Shown piece by piece: positions 33,432 to 47,970 of a stretch of 59,362 nucleotides of DNA. This DNA comes from a virus (taxonomy: Duplodnaviria; Caudoviricetes). The first letter of the stretch is position 1; every line of letters begins with the position of its first letter. The stretch is from positions 1 through 59,362 of the IMG/VR virus record IMGVR_UViG_3300030106_002463; one strand, written 5' to 3'. Under the pieces are notes generated by a model that saw only the letters and a list, made by a program, of their open reading frames with translations, was not told the origin of the DNA and did no database searches. Made by a program: the position numbers and the translations under genes.

Positions 33432-33432
33432 T

Positions 33433-33922: not shown

Positions 33923-34006
33923 TGTCGGGTGCGGGGGTCGAACCCGCATGACCTAACGGTCGGGAGATTTTAAGTCTCCTGTGTATACCAATTCCACCAA
34001 CCCGAC
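33923..34006 (-). tRNA. tRNA-Leu (anticodon TAA, reads UUA)
   Basis: Reverse complement GTCGGGTTGGTGGAATTGGTATACACA-GGAGA-CTTAAAA-TCTCC, long variable arm, GCGGGTTCGACCCCCGC-ACCCGACA. Confidence 0.93.
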
Positions 34007-34398
34007 TAAAGCAAATCCTTCTCGATCTTGTTCGCGATCCTCTTGAATGACCATCCCTTGTCGTTCAACTCAGCAAGCTCCTGTGCGTAAGCAACACCGA
34101 GACCCATCTCAGTGAGAATTTTTAGGCTTGGGAAGGATGTTGTATCCGAACATCCCCAGCCTTTCTTATCGGCATAGCTAGGCATGGCGAACTCTTCATG
34201 AGGATCAATGCTCCACACAACCCAGTTTTTATGCTGGATCCAATCACCTTCAACAATGATGTCGCAAGCCACTCCCAAGCAGCAGTAGTCGCAGTCACCG
34301 CTGATCTCATCTTCCTTGCAAAGATTTGATTTGCCCTGCTGATAGTCACCAGAGCGGAGTGCTTTCACCCATTTCTTTACGTCAGACTTCTTCATCAC
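34006..34398 (-). CDS. Conserved phage hypothetical protein between two tRNAs
   Basis: KKWVKALRSGDYQQG...YCCLGVAC...LAELND.G.SF..IA..IE. Confidence 0.75.
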   Translation of the reverse strand: MMKKSDVKKWVKALRSGDYQQGKSNLCKEDEISGDCDYCCLGVACDIIVEGDWIQHKNWVVWSIDPHEEFAMPSYADKKGWGCSDTTSFPSLKILTEMGLGVAYAQELAELNDKGWSFKRIANKIEKDLL

Positions 34399-34413
34399 AT
34401 CCTTTCTTGTAAG

Positions 34414-34490
34414 TGGCGCACCCGGCAGGATTCGAACCTGCGACCCGCTGCTTAGAAGGCAGCCGCTCTATCCAACTGAGCTACGGGTGC
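34414..34490 (-). tRNA. tRNA-Arg (anticodon TCT, reads AGA)
   Basis: Reverse complement GCACCCGTAGCTCAGTTGGATAGAGCG-GCTGC-CTTCTAA-GCAGC-GGGTCGCAGGTTCGAATCCTGCCGGGTGCGCCA; CCA encoded. Confidence 0.96.
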
Positions 34491-34650
34491 TTTCAAATGG
34501 TTTTAATTGCAGAGTCAGCAACGTATCAATTCGATCCAAAACATCTTCGATGTCTTTGCAGAAGAATTGATCTCCGCTTACTACAAGAAAACCGTTTGCA
34601 ATCTTCCTGACTCTCAACTGAAAGTCGTCGTCTTTATTGTGTGTAGACAT
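34468..34650 (-). CDS. Small hypothetical protein whose 3' end runs into tRNA-Arg
   Basis: Start overlaps upstream stop (TAATG). Confidence 0.45.
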   Translation of the reverse strand: MSTHNKDDDFQLRVRKIANGFLVVSGDQFFCKDIEDVLDRIDTLLTLQLKPFESTRSSVG

Positions 34651-34826
34651 TACTTCTTCTCCCCTTCAATAAATCCCAAGCGCGCAGGAATAACCACAAA
34701 GGAATTGCATACATCACAGCACCGCCCCTCGTTTACGGGTTCAGCGTTGTGCCCCAGATCCCAGCCGGTCAGCGGGTTCCTTTCGATCTCGCTGCTACAA
34801 ACCGAACACTTCATTTCAGTACCCAT
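34650..34826 (-). CDS. Small Zn-ribbon protein
   Basis: CSVC...GHNAEPV..GRCCDVCN..VIPARL; AGAAAGG Shine-Dalgarno before MGTEMK. Confidence 0.7.
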   Translation of the reverse strand: MGTEMKCSVCSSEIERNPLTGWDLGHNAEPVNEGRCCDVCNSFVVIPARLGFIEGEKK

Positions 34827-34938
34827 CCTTTCTTTCTTTCCCTCCTTCTCATTCCCGTCTGCGCGCACCGCTGACCAACTTGCCGCCCAGCTCACGCTGG
34901 TTTCTTTTTCCGATACCATATAAATCCTATCTTTTAAA

Positions 34939-35115
34939 TCAGTACCCATCCTTAAACCATCCACTCCCCTTTAGAGTGAATGAAGTTTTGCTGATTAGTC
35001 TCTTGGCTTTAGCTCTGCACTTCTTCTCGATACAAGTCTTCAAGGGTTCATCCTTGATAGACTGATAGACTGAGAACTCATGCCCCTTGGTGCATTGGTA
35101 GTCGTACTTAGGCAA
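34939..35115 (-). CDS. FmdB-family zinc-ribbon protein (58 aa, TTG start, below the ORF-track cutoff)
   Basis: MPKYDYQCTKGHEF...TCIEKKC...RLISKTSFTLKGSGWFKDGY*; AGGAG Shine-Dalgarno. Confidence 0.85.
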   Translation of the reverse strand: MPKYDYQCTKGHEFSVYQSIKDEPLKTCIEKKCRAKAKRLISKTSFTLKGSGWFKDGY

Positions 35116-35250
35116 AGCTATCTCCTGAAACTAATGAGGGGGACGGGAACATCCCGCCCCCCTCTAACTGCACAGCAAGACTGGTTAAATCCCCCCGGAT
35201 AGCACCCCGCCTTGCTTTCTGTGTGCAGCTATCTATTCTTTTTCCTAGAG

Positions 35251-35697
35251 TTATTCACCATCTTCCGCTTCGACTTCTTCTGCCCAGTCGTCTTCGTCTT
35301 CGGCTTCGTAAAAGATCCGTCGCGCGGGCTCTGGTATGCTTTTACCGACCGCCTCTCGACTCTCCGGTCGTTGCTCGATAGCTGTCTCTTCGTGACTCTG
35401 ATCGACACTGGCCTCCTCCTCTCCCCTTCGCCTCAGGATCCACGTCCTATCCACAGAGGAAACGTCGCCCCTTTCCAATCGGTCGAGTGTTTCCTTCAGC
35501 GTTTGGATCGTAGTTATCCGTGGCTTAGTAGCCCCGACTTCAATGTTACGGATAGTCACATTGGAGATACCCGAAGCAGCAGCCAGTCCATACCGGCTGA
35601 GCTTCAGGTTCATTCTTCGTTCTGCGATCTCTGAAACTCCGGCGACCATCTTTCCTGAGCCGTTACATATGGGACAGACTCGTTCGTTGCTTTCCAT
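35251..35697 (-). CDS. XRE-family helix-turn-helix regulator with N-terminal CxxCxGxG motif and acidic tail
   Basis: RRMNLKLSRYGLAAASGISNVTIRNIEVGATKP. Confidence 0.8.
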   Translation of the reverse strand: MESNERVCPICNGSGKMVAGVSEIAERRMNLKLSRYGLAAASGISNVTIRNIEVGATKPRITTIQTLKETLDRLERGDVSSVDRTWILRRRGEEEASVDQSHEETAIEQRPESREAVGKSIPEPARRIFYEAEDEDDWAEEVEAEDGE

Positions 35698-35912
35698 TAC
35701 TTATCCAAAAGCATCTTGATGATGTCTTCAGAAACAGAGAGGGTGGCCTGCCTGCTCTTGTCCTTCGCCCAATACTCAATGACTAGGTTGACACCAGCCT
35801 CGAATCCTTTTCGGTAGGCAAGCTTCTCTCTATTCCCTTGGGCCATGTAGATATTTTCTATTCCGGCCACTACTTCGCTTGCTGTCGCGATCGAATGGGC
35901 TTCGATTTTCAT
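35697..35912 (-). CDS. Hypothetical protein
   Basis: Coupled start/stop overlaps in the operon. Confidence 0.6.
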   Translation of the reverse strand: MKIEAHSIATASEVVAGIENIYMAQGNREKLAYRKGFEAGVNLVIEYWAKDKSRQATLSVSEDIIKMLLDK

Positions 35913-36208
35913 GATTCACCTTTCCCTTTTGGCTTCCAATCGCCAAAGATATCTTGAGACAAGTTATGCATTTCAACTGACAAAGAACGGATGTTGATCT
36001 TTGCTATCCCCAAGTCATTCTCAAGCTTTGTTTTTTCTGCGTGTGTGACGCCTTGCTTGGATAGCTTATCGATTATCTCATCCCTCTTTCTCTGTTCTTT
36101 TGTCAGCTCCCTATGCTTCTTATCTAGATCATCCTTTAGTTTCTTGATTGGTTTCATCTTCACGCCTGATGATGATGCAATCTTCGCTGTCTTTCCCGAA
36201 GTCGCCAT
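35909..36208 (-). CDS. Coiled-coil hypothetical protein (start may be MKPIKK)
   Basis: Heptad-like charged helix; operon context. Confidence 0.55.
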   Translation of the reverse strand: MATSGKTAKIASSSGVKMKPIKKLKDDLDKKHRELTKEQRKRDEIIDKLSKQGVTHAEKTKLENDLGIAKINIRSLSVEMHNLSQDIFGDWKPKGKGES

Positions 36209-36320
36209 CCGTTGCGACTCTCTTTACCTCATCCAGCATGTCGTTAAGATACTGGCCTGGATTTGTACCGATGATCTTGCTTCCGTTCTTTCTGAAATTG
36301 TGAGAGATAGTCCAGCTCAT
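36129..36320 (-). CDS. Hypothetical protein (MSWTISHN...)
   Basis: ATGA overlap with the upstream RHH gene; GGAGG Shine-Dalgarno. Confidence 0.55.
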   Translation of the reverse strand: MSWTISHNFRKNGSKIIGTNPGQYLNDMLDEVKRVATDGDFGKDSEDCIIIRREDETNQETKG

Positions 36321-36499
36321 GCGCCCTCCGACTCGTCGTAGTTGGTAAGGAAGTCGTTCAGGATGATCCGAAGCTGAGCAGCAGCGGGCCTGTGTTCCTT
36401 GACTGCGATCTCTTTGATGCGAGTCCATGCGTCAGCAGGTAGCTTCATCCTGACTTCACTGATCTTGTCAGTACCTAGGTAGTTGAACTTATCGGGCAT
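36317..36499 (-). CDS. Arc/ribbon-helix-helix DNA-binding protein
   Basis: EVRMKLPADAWTRIKEIAVKEHRPAAAQLRIIL; AAGGAG Shine-Dalgarno. Confidence 0.75.
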   Translation of the reverse strand: MPDKFNYLGTDKISEVRMKLPADAWTRIKEIAVKEHRPAAAQLRIILNDFLTNYDESEGA

Positions 36500-36508
36500 T
36501 GTGTCTCC

Positions 36509-36943
36509 TTAGTTAACGATGTCGGAAGCGAAGGCCCATCGGTCTTCGTTCTGAACAGAGTTGTAAACGCTATACAGTTGATCCATATACGGAGTGTTTG
36601 CGAGTCGAGGATCCTCCTTGACCGCCGCATGGACTTCGTTCTTGAAGTTGGGGTAGGTAATATCTGCGCTGAGCATGGCTCCGAGATGGACCCAAGTCTC
36701 TGCGTTGATGATGATCCGGTATTCGTAGTCACGATTCTTGTATCGACTACCCGGATCGTCGTAACCCAAGATCTCCTCGTCACCGATAAGATCTCCGAAT
36801 CGATCCTTCAAAGACTCAAGGTGTTCCTTGTATCTGGATCGAACCTCGATAACTTGGTCGGTCGGATCGATATCTCCGTTGGTGATATTAGAACTGGTCT
36901 TGTTGACCACACTGAAAAATCCGTAAGTAGTAAAAACCCACAT
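36509..36943 (-). CDS. Conserved phage hypothetical protein
   Basis: MWVFT..GFFSVV...VRSR..HL...RDY.YR...ITYPNFK pattern. Confidence 0.7.
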   Translation of the reverse strand: MWVFTTYGFFSVVNKTSSNITNGDIDPTDQVIEVRSRYKEHLESLKDRFGDLIGDEEILGYDDPGSRYKNRDYEYRIIINAETWVHLGAMLSADITYPNFKNEVHAAVKEDPRLANTPYMDQLYSVYNSVQNEDRWAFASDIVN

Positions 36944-36946
36944 AGT

Positions 36947-37237
36947 CTATTCCCCTTTGCAATTTCTAGACTGAGGCACGACTACTCGCTTGTCCCACCG
37001 TGAGACATCGCGAACGTAGTCTTCGCCGTGTTCTGTGATGATCTGGATGAAGTGCTTCGCATCCTGAGCGGGGCAAGTAAACCTGCCGCCGCCGCACCGG
37101 ACGATAACGGGAGCGAGTCTGTCATTCTTAACAAGCTCACCCAAGCTCTTCTCGTCAAGCCACACATCGTCAAGCCACACATCCTGAGTGGCCTGATTCA
37201 TACGAGACTCTTTCGTATCGAAATCTTTAACCTTCAT
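36947..37237 (-). CDS. Hypothetical early protein
   Basis: GAAGGGG ribosome-binding site; 96 aa. Confidence 0.6.
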   Translation of the reverse strand: MKVKDFDTKESRMNQATQDVWLDDVWLDEKSLGELVKNDRLAPVIVRCGGGRFTCPAQDAKHFIQIITEHGEDYVRDVSRWDKRVVVPQSRNCKGE

Positions 37238-37239
37238 GG

Positions 37240-37422
37240 TTACCCCTTCGTAAGCTCACTCTGGGAGACGTGTCGGTAGGACTCGCCATCCTTCACCGCC
37301 CAGACCATTCGCTTCTTCCCTTTGTCCACAACCATAAGCCTGACAGCCTTCTGGTTGGGATCGCTCCGAAGCAACCACTCGCGATTGATCGAAGCTCCCT
37401 TCCTGTTTTTAATGCCACCCAT
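37240..37422 (-). CDS. Small hypothetical early protein
   Basis: GAAAGGG ribosome-binding site; 60 aa. Confidence 0.55.
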   Translation of the reverse strand: MGGIKNRKGASINREWLLRSDPNQKAVRLMVVDKGKKRMVWAVKDGESYRHVSQSELTKG

Positions 37423-37452
37423 GATACACCCTTTCCTTTCTATTGCAAGCCC

Positions 37453-38814
37453 TTAGTTTGCCTCTACCCGGATGGATCGACCGAAGTCACGGGGCGTAGC
37501 CCACCAGCCACCACGTCGCTGGGGAACCTCGACCCAAAGCACCGGCACACCCGGATCATTCGGGCATCGGAAGAACTCCATGTCAGAGATAACGATAATC
37601 CCGTTGACCTCAAGGTTCTCTTCGACGTACCGGAGAGCCATGTCGATGTCAGTCCCACCGGCAGCCCGCCGCCCCACCTGTGCAGGGAACTCGACCCCCT
37701 GCTCGTAGGAATCGCACGATACGATCCGGTGGTCGAAGACTACGACGTGAGCCATCGAAGGCTGAGCCACGTCAACGATTGACTTGGTTTCCTCAAGTGC
37801 GAGATCGAACATCGCCATGTCCATCGACCCGGAGGAGTCCACGAGGATCGCAATCTCCTCGGACTCCGGGATAACCGAAGGCATGTGAATGCCCATCGAT
37901 GCGTACCGCTTGTTGGGCTTCGTCCAACTCAAGTACCCATCGAATCCGGTCATCGCTTGCTCCACAAAGTCAGCAAGCTCAGCCCGCCAGTCTACGCGAG
38001 ACTTGGCAGCGATATCTCGGACGTGATTCTCGATAGATTCGGGAAGCTTCCCGCTGAGAGAAGCCGATGCCAGCGCGTTTTCCTGACGGATCGTATCCTC
38101 GAATTCAGCATCGCTGATTTCCTCAGGAGTCAACTCGCCGGGATCGACAACCTCGCCCCACTCGCTGATATCCGGCACCTCGTAGTCCTCGATGCCAGAG
38201 ACCTGTTCGCCTCGGTTCAGCCCCTCGTCCTTTCCGATAGGCTGTTCGTCAGAATCCTCCTCGTCTTCAGCATTCTCTCCTTCGGGCTCGCTCGGCTGGT
38301 CGGGCTTGTCCACACCGATGGACCCACCTCCCGGCGGTCCTTCGGGCTCGCCGTCCTCGCAAGGCTTACCCCCCGGCCCTTCGGGCTCCTCCACCTGAAT
38401 GTCCTTCAGGTAACGATAGATCTGCTCCATCGTCATCTCTGCAAACTGCGGATCGCAGAGTGCGTTATCGAGGATCGGGACGTTCGCCTTCTTAAGAAGG
38501 TTGTTCGCCTCCTGATCGGTAGCCTGCTGAACCAACTCCTTATCCTCAAGCTTGATGGATCGGGAGAAGTGCTTCAGGAAGACGTGCGCCCACTCGTGAA
38601 GCACAACGAACTCGACTTGGAAAGCATCGAGAGCGTTGATGAAGTGGGGGTTAACCCACATCGTGTTGCCATCAGTAGCAGCAGTCTTCACGTTGGTAGT
38701 CACGACGACACGCATCTTCGACACGTCGCCTTCGATCATCGGGAAGTCCAGCATTGCATGGATCTTCCCTCGATCCACCTTATCCATAATGTCATCGACC
38801 TTGATCGAATCCAT
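37453..38814 (-). CDS. HExxH metallopeptidase plus vWA domain protein (DUF2201-like)
   Basis: TAATDG, VLHEWAH, acidic linker, MIDAS DSSGSM, GGTD, ISD; start refined to MDSIK after GAAAGGGG. Confidence 0.88.
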   Translation of the reverse strand: MDSIKVDDIMDKVDRGKIHAMLDFPMIEGDVSKMRVVVTTNVKTAATDGNTMWVNPHFINALDAFQVEFVVLHEWAHVFLKHFSRSIKLEDKELVQQATDQEANNLLKKANVPILDNALCDPQFAEMTMEQIYRYLKDIQVEEPEGPGGKPCEDGEPEGPPGGGSIGVDKPDQPSEPEGENAEDEEDSDEQPIGKDEGLNRGEQVSGIEDYEVPDISEWGEVVDPGELTPEEISDAEFEDTIRQENALASASLSGKLPESIENHVRDIAAKSRVDWRAELADFVEQAMTGFDGYLSWTKPNKRYASMGIHMPSVIPESEEIAILVDSSGSMDMAMFDLALEETKSIVDVAQPSMAHVVVFDHRIVSCDSYEQGVEFPAQVGRRAAGGTDIDMALRYVEENLEVNGIIVISDMEFFRCPNDPGVPVLWVEVPQRRGGWWATPRDFGRSIRVEAN

Positions 38815-38827
38815 TTCGTTCCCCTTT

Positions 38828-39706
38828 CTATTGTTCCAATCCGAACATCTCAAAGTTATTGGCAATCTCGTCAGCCTTATCGGCAATCACATTGCGAAGC
38901 GGCTCGGAGTCCTTCAACTGCCGCTCGTCGAACTGCACCAGATTGTCGAGGATTTCTTTCTGGATGAGAGAAATCATCTCGTCGTCAGTGAAGTTGACCT
39001 TCGAGAGAAGCTCAGCATTTTCCTTTACGTTCGTGACGAGGGTCTTCCTGAATGCGGAGTCGCGTCCCGCTTCGGGATCGTAGTCCCGGAGGGACTTGCT
39101 CATCTTCAGAAGAGACTTGTAAGTAGGCACCAGAGAATCTGTCACCGACTTCTTCAGAGACTTCTCAAGGCTCTCGCGAACGTCATCCACAAACTCGTTG
39201 TCGAAGACATCGAGTAGATCGTCAGGATTCTCAACTGCCCGAGGCTTGATGAGTTCGAAGCTGAAAGATGCTCGGAACTCTTCCTTACTCGGAATCTCAC
39301 CTTCCTTGAAGAGATTCCCGGAGAAGTCCTTCACCTCCTCCAGCATCGAATCGAAACCGAACATAATGGTATCGATCCCAGCCTCAACCGAACGCTCCGC
39401 CATTCGGAAGTCGTTGCAGTATTCCTTAATGACGGGAGCCTTGCCGATACCCTCACCCTTCGCAGCTCGCTCGAAAGGAACAAGCCGCTGCCTGTGGTAC
39501 TTCGCCCACTTGTTTCGCTCCTGCGTGAAGGGGCGGAGATACTTCGCCGGAACAATCCGTCGGGTGAAAGTACCCACGTCAGCCGTTGCGTTATACGCAC
39601 TCGCAACAGCATCGACTCCTCGTTCGTCTTTTGTGCCACCCGTAGGCGCACTCGTTCGATAACCCGCGATCATCAAACCGCGAGACTTGTTTTCGTCAAT
39701 CATCAT
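38828..39706 (-). CDS. Helical early protein (DUF3150-like) associated with the AAA/vWA module
   Basis: Start refined to MMIDENK behind a promoter cassette; P...E....FSF motif. Confidence 0.55.
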   Translation of the reverse strand: MMIDENKSRGLMIAGYRTSAPTGGTKDERGVDAVASAYNATADVGTFTRRIVPAKYLRPFTQERNKWAKYHRQRLVPFERAAKGEGIGKAPVIKEYCNDFRMAERSVEAGIDTIMFGFDSMLEEVKDFSGNLFKEGEIPSKEEFRASFSFELIKPRAVENPDDLLDVFDNEFVDDVRESLEKSLKKSVTDSLVPTYKSLLKMSKSLRDYDPEAGRDSAFRKTLVTNVKENAELLSKVNFTDDEMISLIQKEILDNLVQFDERQLKDSEPLRNVIADKADEIANNFEMFGLEQ

Positions 39707-39763
39707 GAACCCCTTTCGTTCAATGAGGGTATGATAGCATACCCTTGACCCCTTGTCAACCCC
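39707..39763 (-). promoter_or_regulatory. Early promoter cassette A
   Basis: TTGACA-17-TATCAT with extended TG; GAAAGGGG RBS. Confidence 0.9.
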
Positions 39764-40848
39764 TAGTAGATAAGATGCGTGTTCGTCCTCATCCACTGGA
39801 GGAAACTGTCAGTCTTACCGATGCGAGACTCGACAGCATCGTTAGCGAAAACCGCCCGACAAACCGTCGGGAGTTTATCCACCCACCCGAGGATGTTCTT
39901 CACGTTCGAAGAGTCACCCTTCTCGACAAGCTTCGTGATAGTGGCGAGAGCCACGTCCGCATCAGACTCACCGGGAGCGGGAACATTCATCCCGTTCAGA
40001 ATCCCAGCGATATCAGGAAGGCGAGCGAAGATCCCGAGGAAGGCGACCATGCGGGCCGCATCCTCCTCGCCCAGCTCACCCTTTGCGAATCGGTAGACTC
40101 GCTTGTCATCACCGACCAGACCAATCTCATCTGCGCTTCGAGCATCCTTCCGGGTTCCCGTTACCTCGCAGCCCGAAGACTTGAGGATGTCAGCGAACGC
40201 CGTGATGGATCGCCCCGTAGCCTGCTGCCCGTTCATCCGACCATCGAACTTCTCGATAAGATCCTTATGGAAATTGCAGGCTGCGATGACACGTCGATCG
40301 ACTCCGTTGCGTCGAGCCCACTTCGTCCAGTCCTCGACCGAAGGAAGCCACTCGACACTATTGAACCGATCATCGAGAGCCCGAGGGAGTTTCCTCACAC
40401 CACACCCGTCCTCGATACGGTTAGACGTGGCAACGATATCCCACCCATCGGGAAGCACCTGATCCCGGATGCGACGTTCAGCAGTCAACTGATAGATCGC
40501 AGGGAAGTGAACCTGCTGGGCGTTGCCCAACTCCTCGATAACAAGGATCCCATGAGGCTCGTCCACCGGAAACCAATCCGGTCGGAGCCACGTCGTCACC
40601 TTGTTTTCGATATCGAGATAGGGCATCCCCTTGATCTCGGTAGGATCTTCCATCGAGAGACGGAAGTCTCGGTATCCCATCTCCTCGGGAGAGATCCCAT
40701 GATCCTTCCGGCGGGCCTCGAAAATCTCGCCACCCGGAGCGAGAGACATGGACTTGTTACACCCCGGCGGCCCCTCGACCTTTGCGGCCCGTCCCGCCCG
40801 GAGGACATCAAGTACCTGTTGCGTAGCCTCTTCAGTCAATCCCATCAC
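39763..40848 (-). CDS. MoxR-like AAA+ ATPase
   Basis: GPPGCNKS (Walker A variant), DPTEIKGMP, LVIEE, IVATSNR, ALDDRF. Confidence 0.88.
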   Translation of the reverse strand: MMGLTEEATQQVLDVLRAGRAAKVEGPPGCNKSMSLAPGGEIFEARRKDHGISPEEMGYRDFRLSMEDPTEIKGMPYLDIENKVTTWLRPDWFPVDEPHGILVIEELGNAQQVHFPAIYQLTAERRIRDQVLPDGWDIVATSNRIEDGCGVRKLPRALDDRFNSVEWLPSVEDWTKWARRNGVDRRVIAACNFHKDLIEKFDGRMNGQQATGRSITAFADILKSSGCEVTGTRKDARSADEIGLVGDDKRVYRFAKGELGEEDAARMVAFLGIFARLPDIAGILNGMNVPAPGESDADVALATITKLVEKGDSSNVKNILGWVDKLPTVCRAVFANDAVESRIGKTDSFLQWMRTNTHLIY

Positions 40849-40907
40849 AAACCCCTTTCGTTTGATGAGTCACAATCCTAGCACAAGGTTAACCCCTTGT
40901 CAACCCC
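40849..40907 (-). promoter_or_regulatory. Early promoter cassette B
   Basis: TTGACA-17-TAGGAT; GAAAGGGG RBS. Confidence 0.9.
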
Positions 40908-41100
40908 TTGTGTTTAATCTTTCTGGTGTACCCCTTGCCACCCTTCTTCGTTCCATGTCGGCCACCCTGAGGGAGTTGCATTTTGCGACTCGCTCTCCGC
41001 ATAGCCTTGGCGATTTCTTCGTTATCCATCTTCGCCATATTGCATTCCTTTCGACTTCGCCCGATGCGAGCAAGTCCTTCTCTGAAGTAGTTCCTCGCAC
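40900..41100 (-). CDS. Small Arg-rich hypothetical protein
   Basis: Follows the micro-peptide trio; its stop TGA lies inside the -35 box of cassette B. Confidence 0.4.
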   Translation of the reverse strand: MRGTTSEKDLLASGEVERNAIWRRWITKKSPRLCGERVAKCNSLRVADMERRRVARGTPERLNTRG

Positions 41101-41108
41101 CTCACGAT

Positions 41109-41213
41109 CTAATTCTGGATGATGGATTCAATCAAGTACCAGAGCATCCCTGCCTGAATCACGATCGTGATGATTCCCCATACCATGAGTGCGTCAGCTA
41201 TCCACTTACGCAT
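41109..41213 (-). CDS. 34-aa single-pass membrane peptide
   Basis: MRKWIADALMVWGIITIVIQAGMLWYLIESIIQN*. Confidence 0.6.
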   Translation of the reverse strand: MRKWIADALMVWGIITIVIQAGMLWYLIESIIQN

Positions 41214-41295
41214 TGAAGTACCAGAGAACAATCGTTTCGATAAAGATTGCGATGGCTCCCACCACCATTATTGCTTCACTCATTAGGGGGTTCAT
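41206..41295 (-). CDS. 29-aa single-pass membrane peptide
   Basis: MNPLMSEAIMVVGAIAIFIETIVLWYFNA*; TAATG coupling and GGGAGG Shine-Dalgarno. Confidence 0.6.
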   Translation of the reverse strand: MNPLMSEAIMVVGAIAIFIETIVLWYFNA

Positions 41296-41375
41296 TACAT
41301 GAACCTCCCCAGCATCAAGTGAATCGAGAGCAGCGTGATATACGCAAACCCCATACACATAAGAAAATCAATCAT
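41295..41375 (-). CDS. 26-aa hydrophobic peptide
   Basis: MIDFLMCMGFAYITLLSIHLMLGRFM*; first ORF behind cassette C. Confidence 0.55.
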   Translation of the reverse strand: MIDFLMCMGFAYITLLSIHLMLGRFM

Positions 41376-41382
41376 CCCTCTC

Positions 41383-41437
41383 ACCCCCTTCGTTCGATAG
41401 GACAATGGTAGCATACCGCTACCCCTTTGTCAACCCC
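41383..41437 (-). promoter_or_regulatory. Early promoter cassette C
   Basis: TTGACA-17-TACCAT; leader ATCGAACGAAGGGGG. Confidence 0.9.
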
Positions 41438-41634
41438 TCTTCAATCGTTCCGACAATCCGCTTGGCGATATCCTCACCGAAGTAAATGGTAGACACGTTG
41501 CCATCAGACCCGATCAATTCGATTCCAAACCTTTCGACACTTCCGTCATTGAAGACTCGGATTTCACCACTCTCATCACGAGACTTGAAGTCCGTCCCGT
41601 TTTCGAAGTAAACGATCTCGCAATCAGTCTGCAC
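41419..41634 (-). CDS. Acidic hypothetical early protein
   Basis: AAAGGGG RBS; its stop lies inside cassette C. Confidence 0.65.
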   Translation of the reverse strand: MQTDCEIVYFENGTDFKSRDESGEIRVFNDGSVERFGIELIGSDGNVSTIYFGEDIAKRIVGTIEEGLTKG

Positions 41635-41955
41635 TTAGTTCCCCTTTCCCTCATTGAACCATGCTTCCAGCGAGTACGGTTCCCACTCCTCGACTTCCCC
41701 CATGAGGGAGACAATCTCGGACGCATCGACCTCGATGAAATTGTCCGCGTGATTTTTTCCTCGACACTGTACAAAGAAGTCGTCAGTCACATATCGCCCC
41801 GTGCGCTCGTCAACTACACCGACCTCTACTTTGTCGGGATTGACGTTGCTATCGACGATGGTGATGGTGACGCCGTTGTCGAACGTGGCATACACCTTTG
41901 TGAAAACTTGACGCCCCTCGCATAGCTCGCTGCGCTCAATTCTTACGCTACTCAC
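41635..41955 (-). CDS. Acidic hypothetical early protein
   Basis: First ORF behind cassette D. Confidence 0.75.
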   Translation of the reverse strand: MSSVRIERSELCEGRQVFTKVYATFDNGVTITIVDSNVNPDKVEVGVVDERTGRYVTDDFFVQCRGKNHADNFIEVDASEIVSLMGEVEEWEPYSLEAWFNEGKGN

Positions 41956-41957
41956 TT

Positions 41958-42016
41958 GAACCCCTTTCGTTCAGTATGGGGAGAGCATAGCACATGCTCC
42001 CCCCATTGTCAACCCC
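41958..42016 (-). promoter_or_regulatory. Early promoter cassette D
   Basis: TTGACA-17-TATGCT; 11-bp stem GGGGGGAGCAT/ATGCTCTCCCC. Confidence 0.9.
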
Positions 42017-42685
42017 CTATCGATTCGTCCACCGCTGGCGGCACACGGGGCCGATACCCAATTCGACAGACTTCTTTTCAGTAAGCTCTCGACCGCAGGC
42101 GGAGCAGGCTCCCGAAGCTTTTCCGTGGTCACGCAGGGTGCCATCGGGGTCAGCGTTCAGAGCGCGTAGCATTTCCACCACACCCTCCGGGCAGTCCTTA
42201 CTCGGGGTGAATTCCCCATCCCGGTCGATCTTCCCGAAATACTTCCGATCCGGCGAGTAGAAATCCTTCACGCCGTTATCGAGGAAGACGCATCCCGGAT
42301 TCTTGGATCGGTCGCCAGCCCTCCGGGCTTTAACTTCGATCCCGTCCACCATGAAGCGAAGCTTCGGGTACTTGATAGACTCCGCAGCCTTATCGAAGAG
42401 TGCGATGACTCCCGGCACGCTTTCGCCACTCACCTTCGGCCCTTCCATGATGGCCTCGTTCGTGTCGAAGAAGTCCCGCAGGAATGCGTCCGCAGTCTCC
42501 CGATTCAGTTGCTCCATCTTCTTTCGGATGATCCACTCCGAGACGTAGGTTTTACCTCCCTCCTCTCGGATCATCTTCTTAGGGATGAAGACTCGTTCCC
42601 GTCGTCCACCATCCTGCACATCGAATGCGATTGCTTTGGCCGACTCCCATACCGGGAGATCCGTTGCCAGAAAATATGCGTTCAT
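42017..42685 (-). CDS. Early protein with C-terminal DUF6011-like Zn finger
   Basis: CSACGRELT...SVELGIGPVC; start refined to MNAYF behind cassette E. Confidence 0.8.
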   Translation of the reverse strand: MNAYFLATDLPVWESAKAIAFDVQDGGRRERVFIPKKMIREEGGKTYVSEWIIRKKMEQLNRETADAFLRDFFDTNEAIMEGPKVSGESVPGVIALFDKAAESIKYPKLRFMVDGIEVKARRAGDRSKNPGCVFLDNGVKDFYSPDRKYFGKIDRDGEFTPSKDCPEGVVEMLRALNADPDGTLRDHGKASGACSACGRELTEKKSVELGIGPVCRQRWTNR

Positions 42686-42688
42686 CGT

Positions 42689-42748
42689 AAACCCCTTTCG
42701 TTTGTTCGATGAGACAAGCTTAGCACAAGCTTGCCACCTTGTCAACCC
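42689..42748 (-). promoter_or_regulatory. Early promoter cassette E
   Basis: TTGACA-17-TAAGCT; GAAAGGGG RBS. Confidence 0.9.
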
Positions 42749-42753
42749 TGTGG

Positions 42754-43053
42754 CTAAAGCCACTTACCCGCGTCGTCAACCCATCCCCAAGAGACGTAGT
42801 AGTCCCCGTCGAAAGCCACGGCGATCTTCGCGCGTGCCCCTCTGCTTCCATCTACGTTCACGAATCTATCGAGGAAAGCGTTGGCGGCAGCCTCCACGTT
42901 GGCCGCAGGGTCCAGCCCATACTCCCAAGATACCTTGATACTCTGTGCGGGGATGTCCTCCCCCCACTTCTCGCGACTCGCTACGAGATGCTGCCCCCGG
43001 TAGTTCGTAGGTCCGTAGAACTTGACCTTGATACCCGCTCGCGATTCCATCAT
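42754..43053 (-). CDS. Hypothetical early protein
   Basis: IKVKFYGPTNYRG motif; start refined behind cassette F. Confidence 0.75.
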   Translation of the reverse strand: MMESRAGIKVKFYGPTNYRGQHLVASREKWGEDIPAQSIKVSWEYGLDPAANVEAAANAFLDRFVNVDGSRGARAKIAVAFDGDYYVSWGWVDDAGKWL

Positions 43054-43055
43054 AT

Positions 43056-43112
43056 GAACCCCTTTCGTTCGATGAGACAAGCTTAGCACATTGTGTGCCC
43101 CTTGTCAACCCC
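43056..43112 (-). promoter_or_regulatory. Early promoter cassette F
   Basis: TTGACA-17-TAAGCT; GAAAGGGG RBS. Confidence 0.9.
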
Positions 43113-43337
43113 TTAGAGATACGCGGTGAAATCACCCTGATCGCGCACCTCTACGCTGTAACCCGTCTTCCCGTTTTCATCCCGCAGGATGGAAATCTCA
43201 TATCCTTCGGGGAGTTCCGTGGTTTTCACCACACGGTAAGTCCAGTCGGGATCGTCCCAGTTACACTGGCGTGCGATTTCGCAGGCTTCCCCGTAGGGAA
43301 GAGACGTGGCTCGATTGCTCTCGATGCTGTTATTCAT
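43113..43337 (-). CDS. Hypothetical early protein
   Basis: Exactly fills the interval between cassettes G and F. Confidence 0.75.
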   Translation of the reverse strand: MNNSIESNRATSLPYGEACEIARQCNWDDPDWTYRVVKTTELPEGYEISILRDENGKTGYSVEVRDQGDFTAYL

Positions 43338-43340
43338 CGT

Positions 43341-43394
43341 GAACCCCTTTCGTTTGATGAGGATACGTTAGCACATCCTCACCCCCTTGTCAAC
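43341..43394 (-). promoter_or_regulatory. Early promoter cassette G
   Basis: TTGACA-17-TAACGT; stem TGAGGATGTG/CGTATCCTCA. Confidence 0.9.
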
Positions 43395-43604
43395 TGGGGG
43401 CGAACCCCCTCGGTAGTCTCCCCGGCGGTGGACTCGTCCCATTCGCGTGGGTATTTCACCACGTTACTAACGAGTCCCCCAGAGGAGGGTCTGCGTGCTT
43501 TTCACCACGGTGGGTACACGTCATGCGTGCTTTCCACCACGATGGGCTGGCATCGTCAGGATGTGGGTACCACCCCACACCGATCCCCGTGAGGGGATTT
43601 CGCC
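43395..43604 (-). ncRNA. Candidate structured non-coding RNA (about 210 nt)
   Basis: No ORF with an RBS; three related CGTG-GTG(G/A)AA..-CACG hairpins plus flanking GC-rich hairpins. Confidence 0.45.
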
Positions 43605-43790
43605 TTATCGGTTCCGATTCTTCCGGGCGTGCCGTCGCTTGCTCAGCGCGTACTTCGCCGCTCGTCGCGCGAGGGTTCCCCCTTCGGGCTTCACCTTCAT
43701 GCTTGCTCGCGGGATCCCGTAGGCTCGTCCCGGCGGGCACACCTCTACCTCTACCATTCCCGCGTCGATCATTTCCTGAACTGTCATCAT
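43605..43790 (-). CDS. Small basic early protein
   Basis: MMTVQEMIDAG... behind cassette H. Confidence 0.7.
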   Translation of the reverse strand: MMTVQEMIDAGMVEVEVCPPGRAYGIPRASMKVKPEGGTLARRAAKYALSKRRHARKNRNR

Positions 43791-43851
43791 GAACCCCTTT
43801 CGTTCGTCGATGGTGGGGAGCTTAGCACATCGAAGCCCCCTTGTCAACCCC
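43791..43851 (-). promoter_or_regulatory. Early promoter cassette H
   Basis: TTGACA-17-TAAGCT; GAAAGGGG RBS. Confidence 0.9.
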
Positions 43852-43855
43852 TAGT

Positions 43856-44068
43856 CTACGGTCGGACTCGGCACCCGTGTTCGTCGTACTTCTGGACGAA
43901 GCACTTTCGCCCCAGCTTCGCGAAGGCATCAACAATCTGCTCCGCCTGCTCGTGGGTGTAGTTCACCCCAAGATCAGCCCAGCCTCCCCGAAGGGTGTCC
44001 TGACCTTCGTGGCCTCCCACCTCAGTGAAATCCACGCCCTCAGCCCAAACCTTGATTCGCAGTCTCAT
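43856..44068 (-). CDS. Hypothetical early protein
   Basis: MRLRIKVWAEG... behind cassette I. Confidence 0.7.
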   Translation of the reverse strand: MRLRIKVWAEGVDFTEVGGHEGQDTLRGGWADLGVNYTHEQAEQIVDAFAKLGRKCFVQKYDEHGCRVRP

Positions 44069-44072
44069 GATA

Positions 44073-44128
44073 GATCCCTTTCGTTCGATGGGGATACAGT
44101 AGCACACTGTCGCCCCTTTGTCAACCCC
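44073..44128 (-). promoter_or_regulatory. Early promoter cassette I
   Basis: TTGACA-17-TACTGT; GAAAGGGA RBS. Confidence 0.9.
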
Positions 44129-44286
44129 TACCTGACGAGCGTGGCTTCCTGCCCACAGTCCCGACACTTCCGCACCTCGGGCTCGTTCCGGAGTCCACCC
44201 CGGCACCAGAGCATTGCGTTGTAATTCCCACACTTCGGGCAGGACGGCTCGTCATTGTTTTCGTAAGAGCAAGTCATCGTTTCCAA
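44128..44286 (-). CDS. Small Zn-ribbon early protein (CPKC...CRDC)
   Basis: TTG or ATG start behind cassette J; stop abuts cassette I. Confidence 0.7.
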   Translation of the reverse strand: METMTCSYENNDEPSCPKCGNYNAMLWCRGGLRNEPEVRKCRDCGQEATLVR

Positions 44287-44290
44287 GACA

Positions 44291-44346
44291 GATCCCTTTC
44301 GTTTGATGGGGAGAAGATAGCACATCCTCGCCCCTTTGTCAACCCC
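44291..44346 (-). promoter_or_regulatory. Early promoter cassette J
   Basis: TTGACA-17-TATCTT; GAAAGGGA RBS. Confidence 0.9.
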
Positions 44347-44348
44347 GT

Positions 44349-44432
44349 GGGCTTTCGCCCTCGTTCGGGGAGCCTTTGGCTGCCCCTTCGCCCGTAGCCC
44401 CGTCACGTCTCGCGTGGTGCGCTTCGTTCGAT
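44349..44432 (-). ncRNA. Candidate small RNA 1 (cassette K cargo)
   Basis: Promoter without RBS or ORF; hairpins CACG-CGAGA-CGTG, GGGGCAGCC-AAA-GGCTCCCC and GGGC-GAAA-GCCC. Confidence 0.55.
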
Positions 44433-44471
44433 GGGGGCATTGTAGCCTATCGGTCGCCCCTTGTCAACCCC
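44423..44471 (-). promoter_or_regulatory. Early promoter cassette K
   Basis: TTGACA-17-TACAAT; leader ATCGAACGAAG lacking the GGGG RBS. Confidence 0.88.
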
Positions 44472-44545
44472 TGATCCAGCGGGGTGCCGGTGGCTCCCCT
44501 ACGAACGTCGCTTCGTCACGTCTCGCGTGGTGTGTGTCGCTCGAT
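44472..44545 (-). ncRNA. Candidate small RNA 2 (cassette L cargo), paralogue of small RNA 1
   Basis: Shares the exact 19-mer CACCACGCGAGACGTGACG and a GGGG.AGCC-N3-GGC.CCCCG hairpin. Confidence 0.55.
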
Positions 44546-44580
44546 GGGGGGAATGATAGCACACAGTTGCCACTTGTCAA
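44537..44580 (-). promoter_or_regulatory. Early promoter cassette L (outermost)
   Basis: TTGACA-16-TATCAT with extended TG; leader ATCGAGCGA. Confidence 0.85.
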
Positions 44581-44638
44581 GGGGGTGGAAACCCCCCAAG
44601 TTATTGTTTCATTATACGTCAGGAAGGAACTCGCAACT

Positions 44639-45148
44639 ATGCCTCGTAACCCCACGGAAAAGCAAAGGAAATTCGCTCAATCGGTAGCGGAAGGTGACAG
44701 CTACTCGGAAGCGTATCGAAAAGCCTACGATGCCGAGGGGAGTTCCCCACAGACGGTGCGTGTTAACGCCCACAGAGTCGCCCATAACGCTAACGTGTCA
44801 CCTATGATAGACGAGCTAAAGGCTCGGAATGAAAGGGGATTACAGCGCAACCTAGGCTCTAGACGCCGCTGGATACTTGAAAGGCTACTAGAGGAGGCCG
44901 AGAGCCTAGAATCTACTCCAGCTTCTCGCGTTAAGTCCTTGGAATTGCTAGCGAAAATGGCTGGCATGTTCGATTCTGAGAAAGAGCGTGCAGAGAAGAG
45001 GGAGCACGCGACCGAATCGGAGCTAATTGCTGAGCTAAATCAACGACTTACGCAGATTATCGAGGAACCGCTTGAAGTTTCAGCCGTAAGTGGTGGGACT
45101 CCTGACGAACCGTCAGATGAGAATGAGGTAGACCCCACCCCCGTGTGA
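44639..45148 (+). CDS. terS: Terminase small subunit
   Basis: TEKQRKFA...SEAYRKAY HTH and RVKSLELLAK..GMF; AAGGA Shine-Dalgarno. Confidence 0.85.
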   Translation: MPRNPTEKQRKFAQSVAEGDSYSEAYRKAYDAEGSSPQTVRVNAHRVAHNANVSPMIDELKARNERGLQRNLGSRRRWILERLLEEAESLESTPASRVKSLELLAKMAGMFDSEKERAEKREHATESELIAELNQRLTQIIEEPLEVSAVSGGTPDEPSDENEVDPTPV

Positions 45149-45326
45149 GCGCAGGCGTGCGTCCGTCTGTCGTATACACTGTGTTTTGCTCATTACACCA
45201 CCAATCCCCAATATTCCTCCTAGTGTTTTAGGAATCGCCGCCTAGGAATTCTCAGGAAACACCTATAGGAGTCCCATGTGCAAAAATTTTTCACAAAAAA
45301 TTTACACAAGACTTCAAATATTACTA

Positions 45327-45355
45327 TTGACAGAGGAATCCTACCCCTATAGAAT
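45327..45355 (+). promoter_or_regulatory. Strong sigma70-type promoter with upstream A/T tracts and no downstream sense ORF
   Basis: TTGACA-17-TAGAAT. Confidence 0.7.
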
Positions 45356-45471
45356 TCTATAGGCGTTAGAATTCGATACATATAGGACTTGGTAAGAGTT
45401 TCGAGCCCACTTGATGTGGGCTCTGGCAGACTAGGATCCTAAGGCCATAGAATCCTATAGGGGCGATCCCG

Positions 45472-45807
45472 TTATCGGTAGTATCCCCCACCTATTCTGG
45501 CTCTGATTAAGCAGAACAGGAGGAGTATGCAGGCTCCTAGGCCCGCAAGGAAGTCTATTTCGGGTAGATAGACTGGCAGATGTTGGGACCAGCCAGTCGG
45601 CCCCTCCGATCCGATCGCTCTGGACCGCACTAGGAGCGCCGTTGCAGGCAGCTCCACGACCGCCTGGAAGCATTCCAAGCAATCGTCCACGGGTTCTACC
45701 CGGATGACCCACTCCCACTCATCAGATCCAACTCTTTGGAATTGGAACTCCCAGGAGTCCACCAGATGAGACTGGGGCTGATTCCAGTAAAGGGTCTTTA
45801 GCGGCAT
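45472..45807 (-). CDS. FN3-like small protein with PEP-CTERM-like C-terminal anchor
   Basis: LYWNQP...VRSRAIGSEGPTGWS, then VYLPE, a hydrophobic helix and RAR. Confidence 0.55.
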   Translation of the reverse strand: MPLKTLYWNQPQSHLVDSWEFQFQRVGSDEWEWVIRVEPVDDCLECFQAVVELPATALLVRSRAIGSEGPTGWSQHLPVYLPEIDFLAGLGACILLLFCLIRARIGGGYYR

Positions 45808-45827
45808 AGTCCGCTCCAGTGGGCAGA

Positions 45828-46265
45828 TTATCCTTCGACTTGCGGCGCTAGGGGTTTCACTTCGCGGCGACAGCGGTAGAGCACCTTGTCGAATCCGTGC
45901 CCCGCCCCGTGCTCCATCACCTCTTTACTGCCAGTAATGAACTCCACGGCGTTACAGCCGGAGTTAGCAGCCATGTTCGCAACTACCTCATGGACACGGC
46001 CAGCCGTCTCGGGAGCGGTGGAGTAGGCGCACCACAGAAACAAAATCTTTTCGCCAGTCGAGTTGTTCTCGTCGATTCGAGCGATGAAGAAACTTTCCCC
46101 CAAGGGAAAGTCTGTATCTACAAAAATCGCGGCTTGGCCGCCCGCACAGGAAGCGTAGAGATCTTCCTTCCTGAAGTCCCTCCAGGGAAGATCCTCCATA
46201 ATCGAGTCGATCTGGGGCGAGATGGCATCCCAAGAATCTTGAACGCGGACAGCTTGAATGGGCAT
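45828..46265 (-). CDS. GNAT-fold acetyltransferase-like protein
   Basis: LFLWCAY...ANMAANSGC..VEF...HGF pattern; AAGGA Shine-Dalgarno before MPIQ. Confidence 0.5.
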   Translation of the reverse strand: MPIQAVRVQDSWDAISPQIDSIMEDLPWRDFRKEDLYASCAGGQAAIFVDTDFPLGESFFIARIDENNSTGEKILFLWCAYSTAPETAGRVHEVVANMAANSGCNAVEFITGSKEVMEHGAGHGFDKVLYRCRREVKPLAPQVEG

Positions 46266-46291
46266 TTCTTTCCTTTTTTTCAGTAGGGGTG

Positions 46292-46320
46292 TTGACGGTT
46301 TGTCAACCCCTCCGTATAAT
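46292..46320 (+). promoter_or_regulatory. Late-operon promoter with a palindrome over the -35 box
   Basis: TTGACG-17-TATAAT; inverted repeat GTTGAC-GGTTT-GTCAAC. Confidence 0.75.
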
Positions 46321-46369
46321 AGAATTGGGATAAGTGTAGGGAAGGGGCCTGCCTTATACAAATCCTATT

Positions 46370-46413
46370 GGCGCTCCTCCCGTTCCCTTTCCGGGGGTTG
46401 AGCGCCTTTTTTT
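46370..46413 (+). terminator. Intrinsic terminator in the late leader
   Basis: GGCGCTC...GAGCGCC stem followed by seven T. Confidence 0.7.
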
Positions 46414-46446
46414 GAGCGGGTGGGTAATAACCCGTAGAGAAACAAA

Positions 46447-47970
46447 GTGGCTATCGAAGGATTAAGTCCGGACCTCATATCAGCTCTACCTAATCTTGGG
46501 CACCTCGGCGACGAGGACAAGAGGGAAGTGCTGGACATAATTGATCGACTGCAAGAACTTCAGTCGTATAAGAATGCAAGGCTAAGCTTTATGGACTTCG
46601 TTCATATGGTTTGGCCTTCTTTCATTGAGGGGTCGCACCACAAGATCATGGGGGAAGCCTTTGAGGATGTGGTTCTCAAAGATGACAAACGTCTTATCAT
46701 TAACATGGCTCCTCGCCATACAAAGTCGGAGTTCGCTTCTTTTCTACTCCCTGCTTGGTTCCTCGGAAACTTTCCGGAAAAGAAAGTAATTCAGACAGCA
46801 CATACCGCAGAACTGGCGGTGGGGTTCGGGCGAAAGGTAAGAAACCTTTTCGAAACAGACGAGTTCAAGAAGGTTTTCCCTGGAGTAGCACTCAGATCAG
46901 ACTCTAAGGCGGCAGGCCGCTGGGCAACAAATCACGGGGGTGAATACTTCGCAATCGGCGTGGGTGGCGCGGTAACAGGTAAGGGTGCGGATCTTCTTAT
47001 TATCGACGATCCCCACTCAGAGCAGGAAGCGCAATTAGGGGACGCCACTGTCTTCGACAAAGTTTACGAGTGGTACACGTCAGGCCCCCGCCAGCGGTTG
47101 CAGCCGGGAGGACGGATCATTCAGGTAGCAACTCGGTGGTCTCAACGGGACTTGACGGGGCAGCTACTCAAGAACTCGGCAGAAAGAGAAGGGACGGATC
47201 AATGGAAGGTCATTGAGTTCCCGGCGATCCTTCCTTCTGGTAATCCGCTTTGGCCTGAGTTCTGGTCGATCGATGAACTGACGAAGGTTAAATCTGAGCT
47301 TCCAGCTTCTAAATGGTCTGCTCAGTACCAACAGGATCCTACAGCCGACGAGGCTGCGATCATCAAAAGAGAGTGGTGGAGAGTCTGGGAGTATCAAGAA
47401 CCTCCCCCGTGCGACTTCATCATACAGTCTTGGGATACAGCGTTTCTCAAGACAGAAAGAGCCGACTTCTCAGCCTGTACGACATGGGGCGTTTTCTACA
47501 GCGACGATACTGAAGATGGTAGGATAAGGCCGAATCTCATCCTTTTGAACGCCTTTCAGGACCGAATGGAGTTCCCTGAGCTAAAGAGGAGGGCGTTTGA
47601 CGAGTATCAAGATTGGCAACCAGATGCCTGCATCGTCGAAGCGAAGGCAGCAGGATCTCCTCTGATTTTTGAATTGAGACAGATGGGTGTTCCTGTAAGT
47701 GAATACACCCCGTCTAGAGGTAGAGACAAGATTGCTCGCGTGAACGCAGTCGCAGATCTGTTTGCTTCTGGAACAGTGTGGGCACCGAGCAAGAGATTCG
47801 CAGAAGAAGTGATAGAGCAGTTCGCTGGATTCCCCGGCGCGTCTGCTCATGATGACTTGGTGGACTCGTCCACTCAGGCATTACTTAGATTCAGGCAAGG
47901 CGGCTTCGTCCCGATCGATAGCGACGAAGAGCTTGTATACGAACCAAAGCGGGCGTACTCGCCCTACTAG
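46447..47970 (+). CDS. terL: Terminase large subunit
   Basis: NMAPRHTKS (Walker A), TGKGADLLIIDDP (Walker B), QSWDTA, IVEAKAAG and HDDLVDS nuclease motifs. Confidence 0.97.
   Translation: MAIEGLSPDLISALPNLGHLGDEDKREVLDIIDRLQELQSYKNARLSFMDFVHMVWPSFIEGSHHKIMGEAFEDVVLKDDKRLIINMAPRHTKSEFASFLLPAWFLGNFPEKKVIQTAHTAELAVGFGRKVRNLFETDEFKKVFPGVALRSDSKAAGRWATNHGGEYFAIGVGGAVTGKGADLLIIDDPHSEQEAQLGDATVFDKVYEWYTSGPRQRLQPGGRIIQVATRWSQRDLTGQLLKNSAEREGTDQWKVIEFPAILPSGNPLWPEFWSIDELTKVKSELPASKWSAQYQQDPTADEAAIIKREWWRVWEYQEPPPCDFIIQSWDTAFLKTERADFSACTTWGVFYSDDTEDGRIRPNLILLNAFQDRMEFPELKRRAFDEYQDWQPDACIVEAKAAGSPLIFELRQMGVPVSEYTPSRGRDKIARVNAVADLFASGTVWAPSKRFAEEVIEQFAGFPGASAHDDLVDSSTQALLRFRQGGFVPIDSDEELVYEPKRAYSPY

Follow-up and report, generated by a model that had tools for sequence, protein, structure and literature searches.

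The two outermost cassettes of the leftward early array of an uncultured phage, here called L and K, carry promoters close to the consensus and cargos in which no gene is recognised, and the question raised by this locus is what RNAs made from such cassettes would do. The window, meaning the whole stretch of DNA that was analysed, is an entire virus record of 59,362 bp, complete by CheckV, and end repeats are absent from it. Judged from its sequence, the phage is a distant relative of the HTVC023P-type podoviruses: its terL shares no more than 55-57% identity with those of cultured phages, the nearest by this gene being phage 023Pt_psg01, the Pelagibacter phages HTVC027P and HTVC023P, and DSL-LC04. 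The record also holds three tRNA genes on the minus strand, Ile-TAT (26937-27012), Leu-TAA (33921-34006) and Arg-TCT (34414-34490), all of them for A/T-ending codons.

An early array headed by two cassettes without genes

The array occupies positions 39731-44580 on the minus strand, where 12 promoters of the form TTGACA-16/17-TAnnnT are found, most of them with the extended -10 TG; the string GGGTTGACAA has 11 exact copies on this strand, and a promoter scan returned 15 promoter-like sites against 8.5 +/- 2.5 in shuffles. Ten of the 12 promoters lead into a near-identical leader, ATC(G/A)AACGAAAGGG, followed by a start codon and a small ORF. In the two outermost, P_L and P_K, the sequence departs from this common leader after about 10 nt. 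P_L (44580-44553, minus strand), the outermost of the array, consists of TTGACA, a 16-nt spacer with TG, and TATCAT, while P_K (44467-44439, minus strand) reads TTGACA-17-TACAAT and is identical at 28 of 29 positions to its counterpart in the relative L010. The first-pass annotation had called both promoters near-consensus, and this is confirmed, as each matches 11 of 12 consensus positions and they are the best on the minus strand of 33000-47000.

Next to K lies P_J (44314-44342, minus strand), which serves the first protein-coding cassette, with an ORF of 49 aa (44128-44277, minus strand) bearing Cys pairs, whose zinc-ribbon Pfam matches all fall below the cut-off. On the other side, the divergent neighbour of L is terS (44639-45148, plus strand; Pfam Terminase_2, 27.9 bits against a cut-off of 26.1). 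A GC hairpin with a T-rich tail (44581-44597), which resembles a terminator when the plus strand is read, separates P_L from terS and may be an insulator or terminator shielding terS from antisense transcription; an unrelated hairpin stands at its place in L010 (about 1727-1747). Beyond terS, the gap towards terL contains a 1.3-kb module (45220-46361) of two minus-strand ORFs, 145 aa and 111 aa long and without a Pfam match, which carries its own GGGTTGACAA promoter at 46300-46309. A motif found upstream of terS and of a minus-strand gene, ATTATACG, was dropped, having two copies only, a number equalled in 11 of 100 shuffles.

The K and L RNAs are predicted to share one architecture, starting at the predicted +2 with a long interrupted stem-loop (P1a, P1b and the apical P2), followed by one or two bases and a short GC hairpin (P3). 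Stem-loop I is composed of the outer pairs UCG/CGA and CG/CG, a middle helix and the apical hairpin CACG/CGUG, and stem-loop II pairs GGGG(c)AGCC with GGC(u)CCCC. The L core RNA (44480-44545, minus strand) comprises 66 nt from the predicted start A 44545 and scores 89.6 bits with the covariance model described below; its stem-loop I extends over about 44544-44501, with the apical hairpin CACG-cgaga-CGTG at 44529-44517, and its stem-loop II over 44499-44481 (GGGGAGCC-acc-GGCACCCC), followed by an unstructured tail of 12 nt (44468-44479) that reaches into the -35 of P_K. The K core RNA (44366-44432, minus strand; 67 nt from the predicted start A 44432; 88.7 bits) has its stem-loop I at 44431-44388, with the apical hairpin at 44416-44404, and its stem-loop II at 44386-44367 (GGGGcAGCC-aaa-GGCTCCCC). 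In addition, K ends in a terminal hairpin, GGGC-GAAA-GCCC (44349-44360, minus strand), located 6 nt before the -35 of P_J and followed by ACGGGG, with no U tract. From the predicted start to the next -35 there are 90 nt in K and 78 nt in L.

All three hairpins named in the first-pass annotation (CACG-cgaga-CGTG, GGGG..CCCC and GGGC-GAAA-GCCC) are present and predicted by folding, and the exact 19-mer said to be common to both cargos occurs on the minus strand at 44401-44419 and 44514-44532, two matches being reached in none of 100 shuffles. When the seven distinct cores known from the window and its relatives (66-68 nt) are folded singly, all seven give the same two-stem-loop architecture, and RNAalifold agrees with the single-sequence fold. 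The fold energy of K has a z of -2.98 (1 of 200 shuffles as good), and that of L is -0.88 in the window (35 of 200 shuffles as good) and -1.33 in L010.

Regarding coding potential, nine ORFs of at least 20 aa overlap 44343-44545, but each of them starts upstream of the predicted RNA start or is not kept in L010, so that the absence of an ORF from both cargos stands. The terS frame extends upstream by 270 aa in the window, but this extension is closed in L010, where the frame opened by GTG-44406 is shifted as well. Micro-ORFs were rejected as well, as the nucleotides conserved between the K copies of the window and L010 are read in different frames. The leaders had also been described as lacking the GGGG ribosome-binding site, which is correct in that no start codon comes after such a sequence but not to the letter, because GGGG recurs 45 nt into the RNA as the 5' arm of hairpin II.

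The proposal that K and L yield small RNAs of 84 and 74 nt, each ending as a separate species, found no support, since a terminator is absent after both cargos: no terminator-like site, that is, no GC hairpin with a U tract, was found on the minus strand of 44343-44545. Over 33000-47000, the scan, which is blind to Rho-dependent sites, gave 12 terminator-like sites against 11.8 +/- 3.9 in shuffles, and two lie inside the array on the minus strand, both weak. Moreover, Rfam at the gathering score matched only the three tRNAs and Hammerhead_II in the whole window, leaving K and L unmatched, and a search of 44330-44610 at E up to 10 returned only three plus-strand matches at chance level, to eukaryotic families. 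As an observation on the wider group, a distant terL relative (L048) carries an Rfam Mu-gpT-DE RNA at 11274-11328 (plus strand; 58.1 bits against a gathering score of 49).

The earlier suggestion of a decoy or crRNA mimic likewise received no support, either from Rfam, where nothing matched, or from an exact search of the invariant hairpin II 21-mer in one genome each of 185,579 species, in which it was never arrayed: the four matches were all single copy, each inside long sequence that looked gene-like by eye, and none lay within a repeat array. This comparison with CRISPR repeats covers exact matches of one hairpin.

Distribution and conservation of the fold

Relatives carrying this region are few. 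A terL search of IMG/VR produced 594 related stretches, and the K/L region was present only in L010 and at the end of L009. A specific pattern scan of metagenome contigs returned eight stretches, of which three were new relatives (L203, L206 and L207), one (L204) was a duplicate of L010, and four were unrelated, having no cassette promoters or cassette leaders near the match. Stricter pattern scans of IMG/VR gave L010 alone besides the window, except that one of them also returned a stretch in a 150-kb contig, taken as unrelated. A loose scan of the same database gave 114 stretches, none with an upstream promoter or with two or more cassette promoters, and these were discarded as chance. Furthermore, blastn of 44000-45200 against 50,697 phage records had no match. 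The set comprises seven distinct core copies on five contigs, with K from the window, L207 and L010, and L from the window, L203, L010 and L206; an additional L copy in L009 is truncated. Across 46 sources that add up to 528,596 bases, the covariance model of K and L gave no further match exceeding noise, and no third copy in the window. The family is confined to one small clade.

Within this clade, the K and L modules always head the leftward early array on its terS side, and L adjoins terS in every contig that includes this junction (window, L010 and L009). The genes downstream vary between strains while L keeps its place beside terS, suggesting that cassettes shuffle at the promoter repeats and that K is dispensable. 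This is also seen in L203, which over 3 kb shares 99% identity with the window and nevertheless has a single L-type cassette and no K. An attempt to generalise this arrangement as a long non-coding head, using the ORF-free DNA upstream of terS at 21 loci, was abandoned because the measure was too noisy.

The recommended check by a covariance model among relatives turned out favourably, as a model built from five copies recovered the held-out K of L010 at 62.4 bits and the held-out L of L206 at 60.9 bits. Pairing is found in 86.4% of the pair cells, compared with 30-38% when the partners are slid, in an alignment that was itself fitted to the model structure. Three of the 22 pairs change on both sides, and the covariation score was reached by 1 of 500 shuffles, both resting on seven distinct but closely related copies; 13 of the 22 pairs never vary and are therefore uninformative either way. 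This covariation is genuine, though thin; K shows it well and L poorly.

Comparing the window with L010, the differences in K fall in 9 of 30 unpaired and 3 of 44 paired columns (Fisher p = 0.010), and one of the three paired changes is compensatory, from GC to AU. The corresponding figures for L are 5 of 30 unpaired and 8 of 44 paired columns (p = 0.68), and the L copy of L010 has lost four inner pairs relative to that of the window. Two hairpins have been exchanged as a whole: the terminal GGGC-GAAA-GCCC of K becomes GGGGA-TTTA-TCCCC in L010, and in the apical stem of the L copy of L206, CCGC/GCGG replaces CACG/CGUG at the equivalent position of the fold. Hairpin II, its loop included, is invariant in the four L-type copies, and the motif CACCACGC is present in all seven copies. 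The strain variants seen in contigs of sequencing runs affect a loop, a linker and an unpaired position.

The cargos of the window and L010 are 74-77% identical, with 48% at the four-fold sites of terL and 70% at those of the adjacent terS. Judged by these alignments, cargo identity is barely above the local neutral level set by the terS four-fold sites; the P_L spacer and the DNA between P_L and terS are much more diverged than the cargo. Altogether, the picture drawn by the first-pass annotation, of two paralogous non-coding cargos behind the best promoters of the array, is upheld, together with an RNA-type fold that is conserved in relatives; such a structure is likely, with stronger support in K than in L, and falls short of proof.

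The apical hairpin outside K and L

The motif CACGC-N1-4-GACGTG occurs three times in the window, a number that none of 100 shuffles reached, and three times in L010. The third copy of the window, CACG-catga-CGTG (43517-43529, minus strand), belongs to a non-coding RNA downstream of a hammerhead ribozyme. This ribozyme is of type II (Rfam RF02276) and is placed at 43541-43605 (minus strand), directly after the stop of a 61-aa early ORF, with further matches in L010 (903-967, minus strand) and L206 (8064-8128, minus strand), at 45.9-47.3 bits compared with a gathering score of 37. The RNA that follows is about 145 nt long (43396-43540, minus strand) and is folded into a long stem capped by the CACG/CGUG hairpin, which shows a compensatory change from G-C to A-U in L010; a 215-nt stretch including the ribozyme has a fold z of -3.55, with none of 200 shuffles as good. 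At its 3' end stands GGGGG-TTCG-CCCCC (43409-43396), with the next promoter right after it, and in run contigs from other strains the same ending is joined to the J promoter.

The 61-aa early protein (43605-43790, minus strand) has an arginine-rich C-terminal tail and is found in L203, L207, L010 and L206 but not in L026, where the hairpin occurs; it was rejected as a binder of the hairpin, as L026 has no homologue of it. A virion RNA polymerase using hairpin promoters was considered as well and set aside, since the 3256-aa protein of the phage (14863-24633, plus strand) has no Pfam polymerase domain. Its matches are to an LPD38 domain (109.7 bits) and a NUDIX domain (51 bits), and it looks like a polyvalent protein that is probably ejected.

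The apical hairpin is also found in a sister lineage, represented by L026, whose terL is 74% identical and which was recovered through terL and not through the motif, and by L215, a 61-kb contig. Nine copies are available, six from L215 (5303-7457, plus strand; one with GTCGTG as its 3' arm) and three from L026 (337-1598, minus strand), in the form (G)CACG-CAAAGA-CGTG(C). All nine are placed 6-25 nt upstream of a start codon, before ORFs of 37-356 aa, with a purine-rich run resembling a Shine-Dalgarno sequence between hairpin and start codon, and several have a second hairpin, CATCGGA..TCCGATG, farther upstream. This constant position before an ORF indicates an mRNA leader element in that lineage. 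In addition, some copies abut the stop codon of the previous gene, so the hairpin is not tied to promoters.

What the K and L RNAs may do

The reading preferred here, with a confidence that stays slightly under even, takes K and L for structured leaders that have no ORF of their own (orphan leaders) and act in cis on read-through early transcripts, combined with tandem promoters of the T7 kind. Where transcription starts, how far it reads through and how stable the RNA is are all matters that we infer. Because both cargos lack a terminator and ten more promoters with their genes lie beyond them in the same orientation, polymerases that start at P_L and P_K are expected by default to read on into the next cassettes. 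Host RNA polymerase started at either promoter would then run through the downstream cassettes, and the longest early transcripts would begin with the K or L RNA as a structured 5' leader. Acting in cis, this leader would provide an untranslated stretch of 150-270 nt with a 5' end that is base-paired and with a fold that is compact and G-rich, and the stretch may be shielded in this way from 5'-end-dependent RNases and Rho. Where RNase E and Rho are concerned, such properties are established as protecting RNA that is not translated. The description as orphan leaders, whose ORF was lost or never present, is given because P2 is the hairpin that precedes early ORFs in the sister lineage, and the position of this homologous hairpin just upstream of those ORFs indicates a cis-acting leader element.

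The two extra strong promoters would raise early transcription in the manner of T7 A1-A3. In T7, A1, A2 and A3 are strong promoters for the host polymerase, arranged in tandem about 100-125 bp apart ahead of the first early gene, at the end of the genome that is first to enter the cell; the DNA between them is non-coding and free of terminators. P_L and P_K are similarly strong, tandem and placed before the first early gene, with non-coding, terminator-free DNA between them; they differ in that the transcribed spacers K and L are paralogous and have a conserved RNA fold, and in that the array goes on with one promoter per small gene. Regarding the leader itself, 5'-terminal stem-loops that stabilise bacterial and phage mRNAs are known from the ompA leader and from ribozyme-plus-hairpin insulators. 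K and L share with them a 5' end paired within 1-2 nt of the predicted start, and to this may be added the sister-lineage hairpin just before ribosome-binding sites and the hammerhead ribozyme in the same array. However, K and L have no ribosome-binding site and start codon downstream, and the sequence of their stem is preserved from one lineage to another, something that simple stabilisation would not call for.

A different function for the hairpin may be imagined, in which CACG-C(N)GA-CGUG is the site for a sequence-specific RNA-binding factor that organises the early transcriptome, whether RNA polymerase as in put, a hairpin-specific endoribonuclease or a chaperone. Such a site would mark every early cistron of the sister lineage and would have moved here onto two ORF-less RNAs transcribed from the strongest promoters and onto the RNA released by the hammerhead, forming a system of RNA processing and insulation, or of decoys, for the host-takeover array; we consider this rather improbable. 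Free trans-acting small RNAs of about 70-90 nt, with 3' ends trimmed to hairpin II in L or to the terminal tetraloop hairpin in K, could use the invariant hairpins to bind an RNA-binding factor of the host or the phage, or to titrate it. This deserves some weight, although it is unlikely: P_L and P_K are the strongest promoters of the array, hairpin II and CACCACGC are kept in the four L-type and in all seven copies, respectively, and a GNRA-capped GC hairpin ends K right before the next promoter as if it were a protected 3' end, with a similar ending, GGGGG-TTCG-CCCCC, on the ORF-less cargo behind the hammerhead; one apical hairpin in three RNAs of the window would also suit a common protein partner. 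Nevertheless, the terminator is missing after both cargos, a near-identical strain does without K, Rfam has no match up to an E of 10, no array in the species-representative genomes has the hairpin II 21-mer as its repeat, and the homologous hairpin of the sister lineage belongs to mRNA leaders. Phage RNA mimics are known as RNA anti-CRISPRs, which are solitary repeat units, and as pseudo-ToxI antitoxin repeats, and K and L are equally short, promoter-driven, hairpin-bearing, non-coding and multi-copy in a phage; unlike these, their unit measures 113 bp with its own promoter, and hairpin II forms no array in the representative genomes. In ToxI-like type III antitoxins, units of about 34-36 nt are repeated head to tail and the toxin processes them, whereas K and L occur at a spacing of 113 bp, each behind a promoter of its own, which is not an arrangement of this type. 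The opposite possibility is a neutral duplicated spacer, in which only the tandem promoters matter, for early transcription or for capture of RNA polymerase, and the fold is a by-product of G+C-rich sequence and recent common ancestry. The dispensability of K, a cargo identity (74-77%) barely above the 70% of the terS four-fold sites, an L fold energy no better than that of shuffles, changes in L that are not enriched in unpaired columns, and the restriction to one small clade, with L010 alone besides the window in the IMG/VR scans, are all in agreement with it. It is still quite unlikely, as the changes in K avoid paired columns (p = 0.010) and include a compensatory pair, the K terminal and L206 apical hairpins were swapped for different sequences that still pair, pairing reaches 86.4% against 30-38% in the slid controls, the hairpin motif is kept between lineages only 74% identical in terL, and the P_L spacer and the DNA from P_L to terS diverge far more.

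The architecture also recalls the put RNAs of phage HK022, which are two paralogous RNAs of ~70 nt, each with two bulged stem-loops, putL lying just downstream of an early promoter with pairing from nucleotide 3 (PMC9378689). K and L are alike in their cores of 66-68 nt, two paralogous copies, two stem-loops and an early promoter upstream; their pairing begins at +2, with the stem-loops 1-2 nt apart. A put RNA attaches to the zinc-binding domain of the RNA polymerase beta' subunit and counters pausing and termination in cis. A nascent two-stem-loop RNA acting as a cis antiterminator would stay on its own polymerase and make it resist pausing and termination, so that only polymerases from P_L and P_K would reach the distal genes, and the place of K and L at the head of an 11-kb leftward block would fit such a role. 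This appears very unlikely. K and L differ from put in being in tandem in one operon, whereas put is in two divergent operons, and their stem-loop II is much shorter. Downstream of them, ten further promoters follow, and the terminator-like sites are not in excess, with two weak ones in the array, leaving no visible need for antitermination. The covariance model, run with filters off on the whole HK022 record, gave no credible match, as its seven matches all had E >= 1.4 and none was located at 28-30 kb, where we take the early promoters of HK022 to be. Finally, the repeats could act as duplex DNA, as a pac or cos site recognised by the terminase small subunit, an operator for shutting off the early promoters, or a promoter-primed replication origin. 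Their location 95-300 bp upstream of terS, the 19-mer repeated at a distance of 113 bp, the contigs of four relatives that start or stop within the L cassette and a minimum of cumulative GC skew at 44-46 kb would be consistent with this highly improbable alternative. Compensatory replacement of whole hairpins, however, suits single-strand pairing and not a sequence-specific duplex, one strain is single-copy, the 3' half of the 19-mer is missing from L in L206 and L009, and the third hairpin is far from any promoter and from terS, within a longer RNA stem with a compensatory change. Contig breaks are expected at repeats and strain variation, and the GC skew tracks gene orientation here, which means that it cannot mark an origin.

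Returning to the orphan leaders on read-through transcripts, the K/L element is an RNA motif for which Rfam has no family, but its kind is a familiar one, that of structured leaders on early phage RNAs, here behind early promoters in tandem. In the transcriptome paper PMC12753301, the terms promoter, non-coding, intergenic and sRNA do not occur. The family is narrow and is, for now, a well-documented candidate rather than a discovery. As an element of 200 bp that can be cloned, it lends itself to testing 5'-end protection, modification of RNA polymerase or decoy action. If the leader reading is true, it would represent an undescribed RNA motif absent from Rfam, and the immediate-early transcripts of an uncultured marine podovirus would be built from tandem consensus host promoters, a two-hairpin leader and a hammerhead ribozyme.
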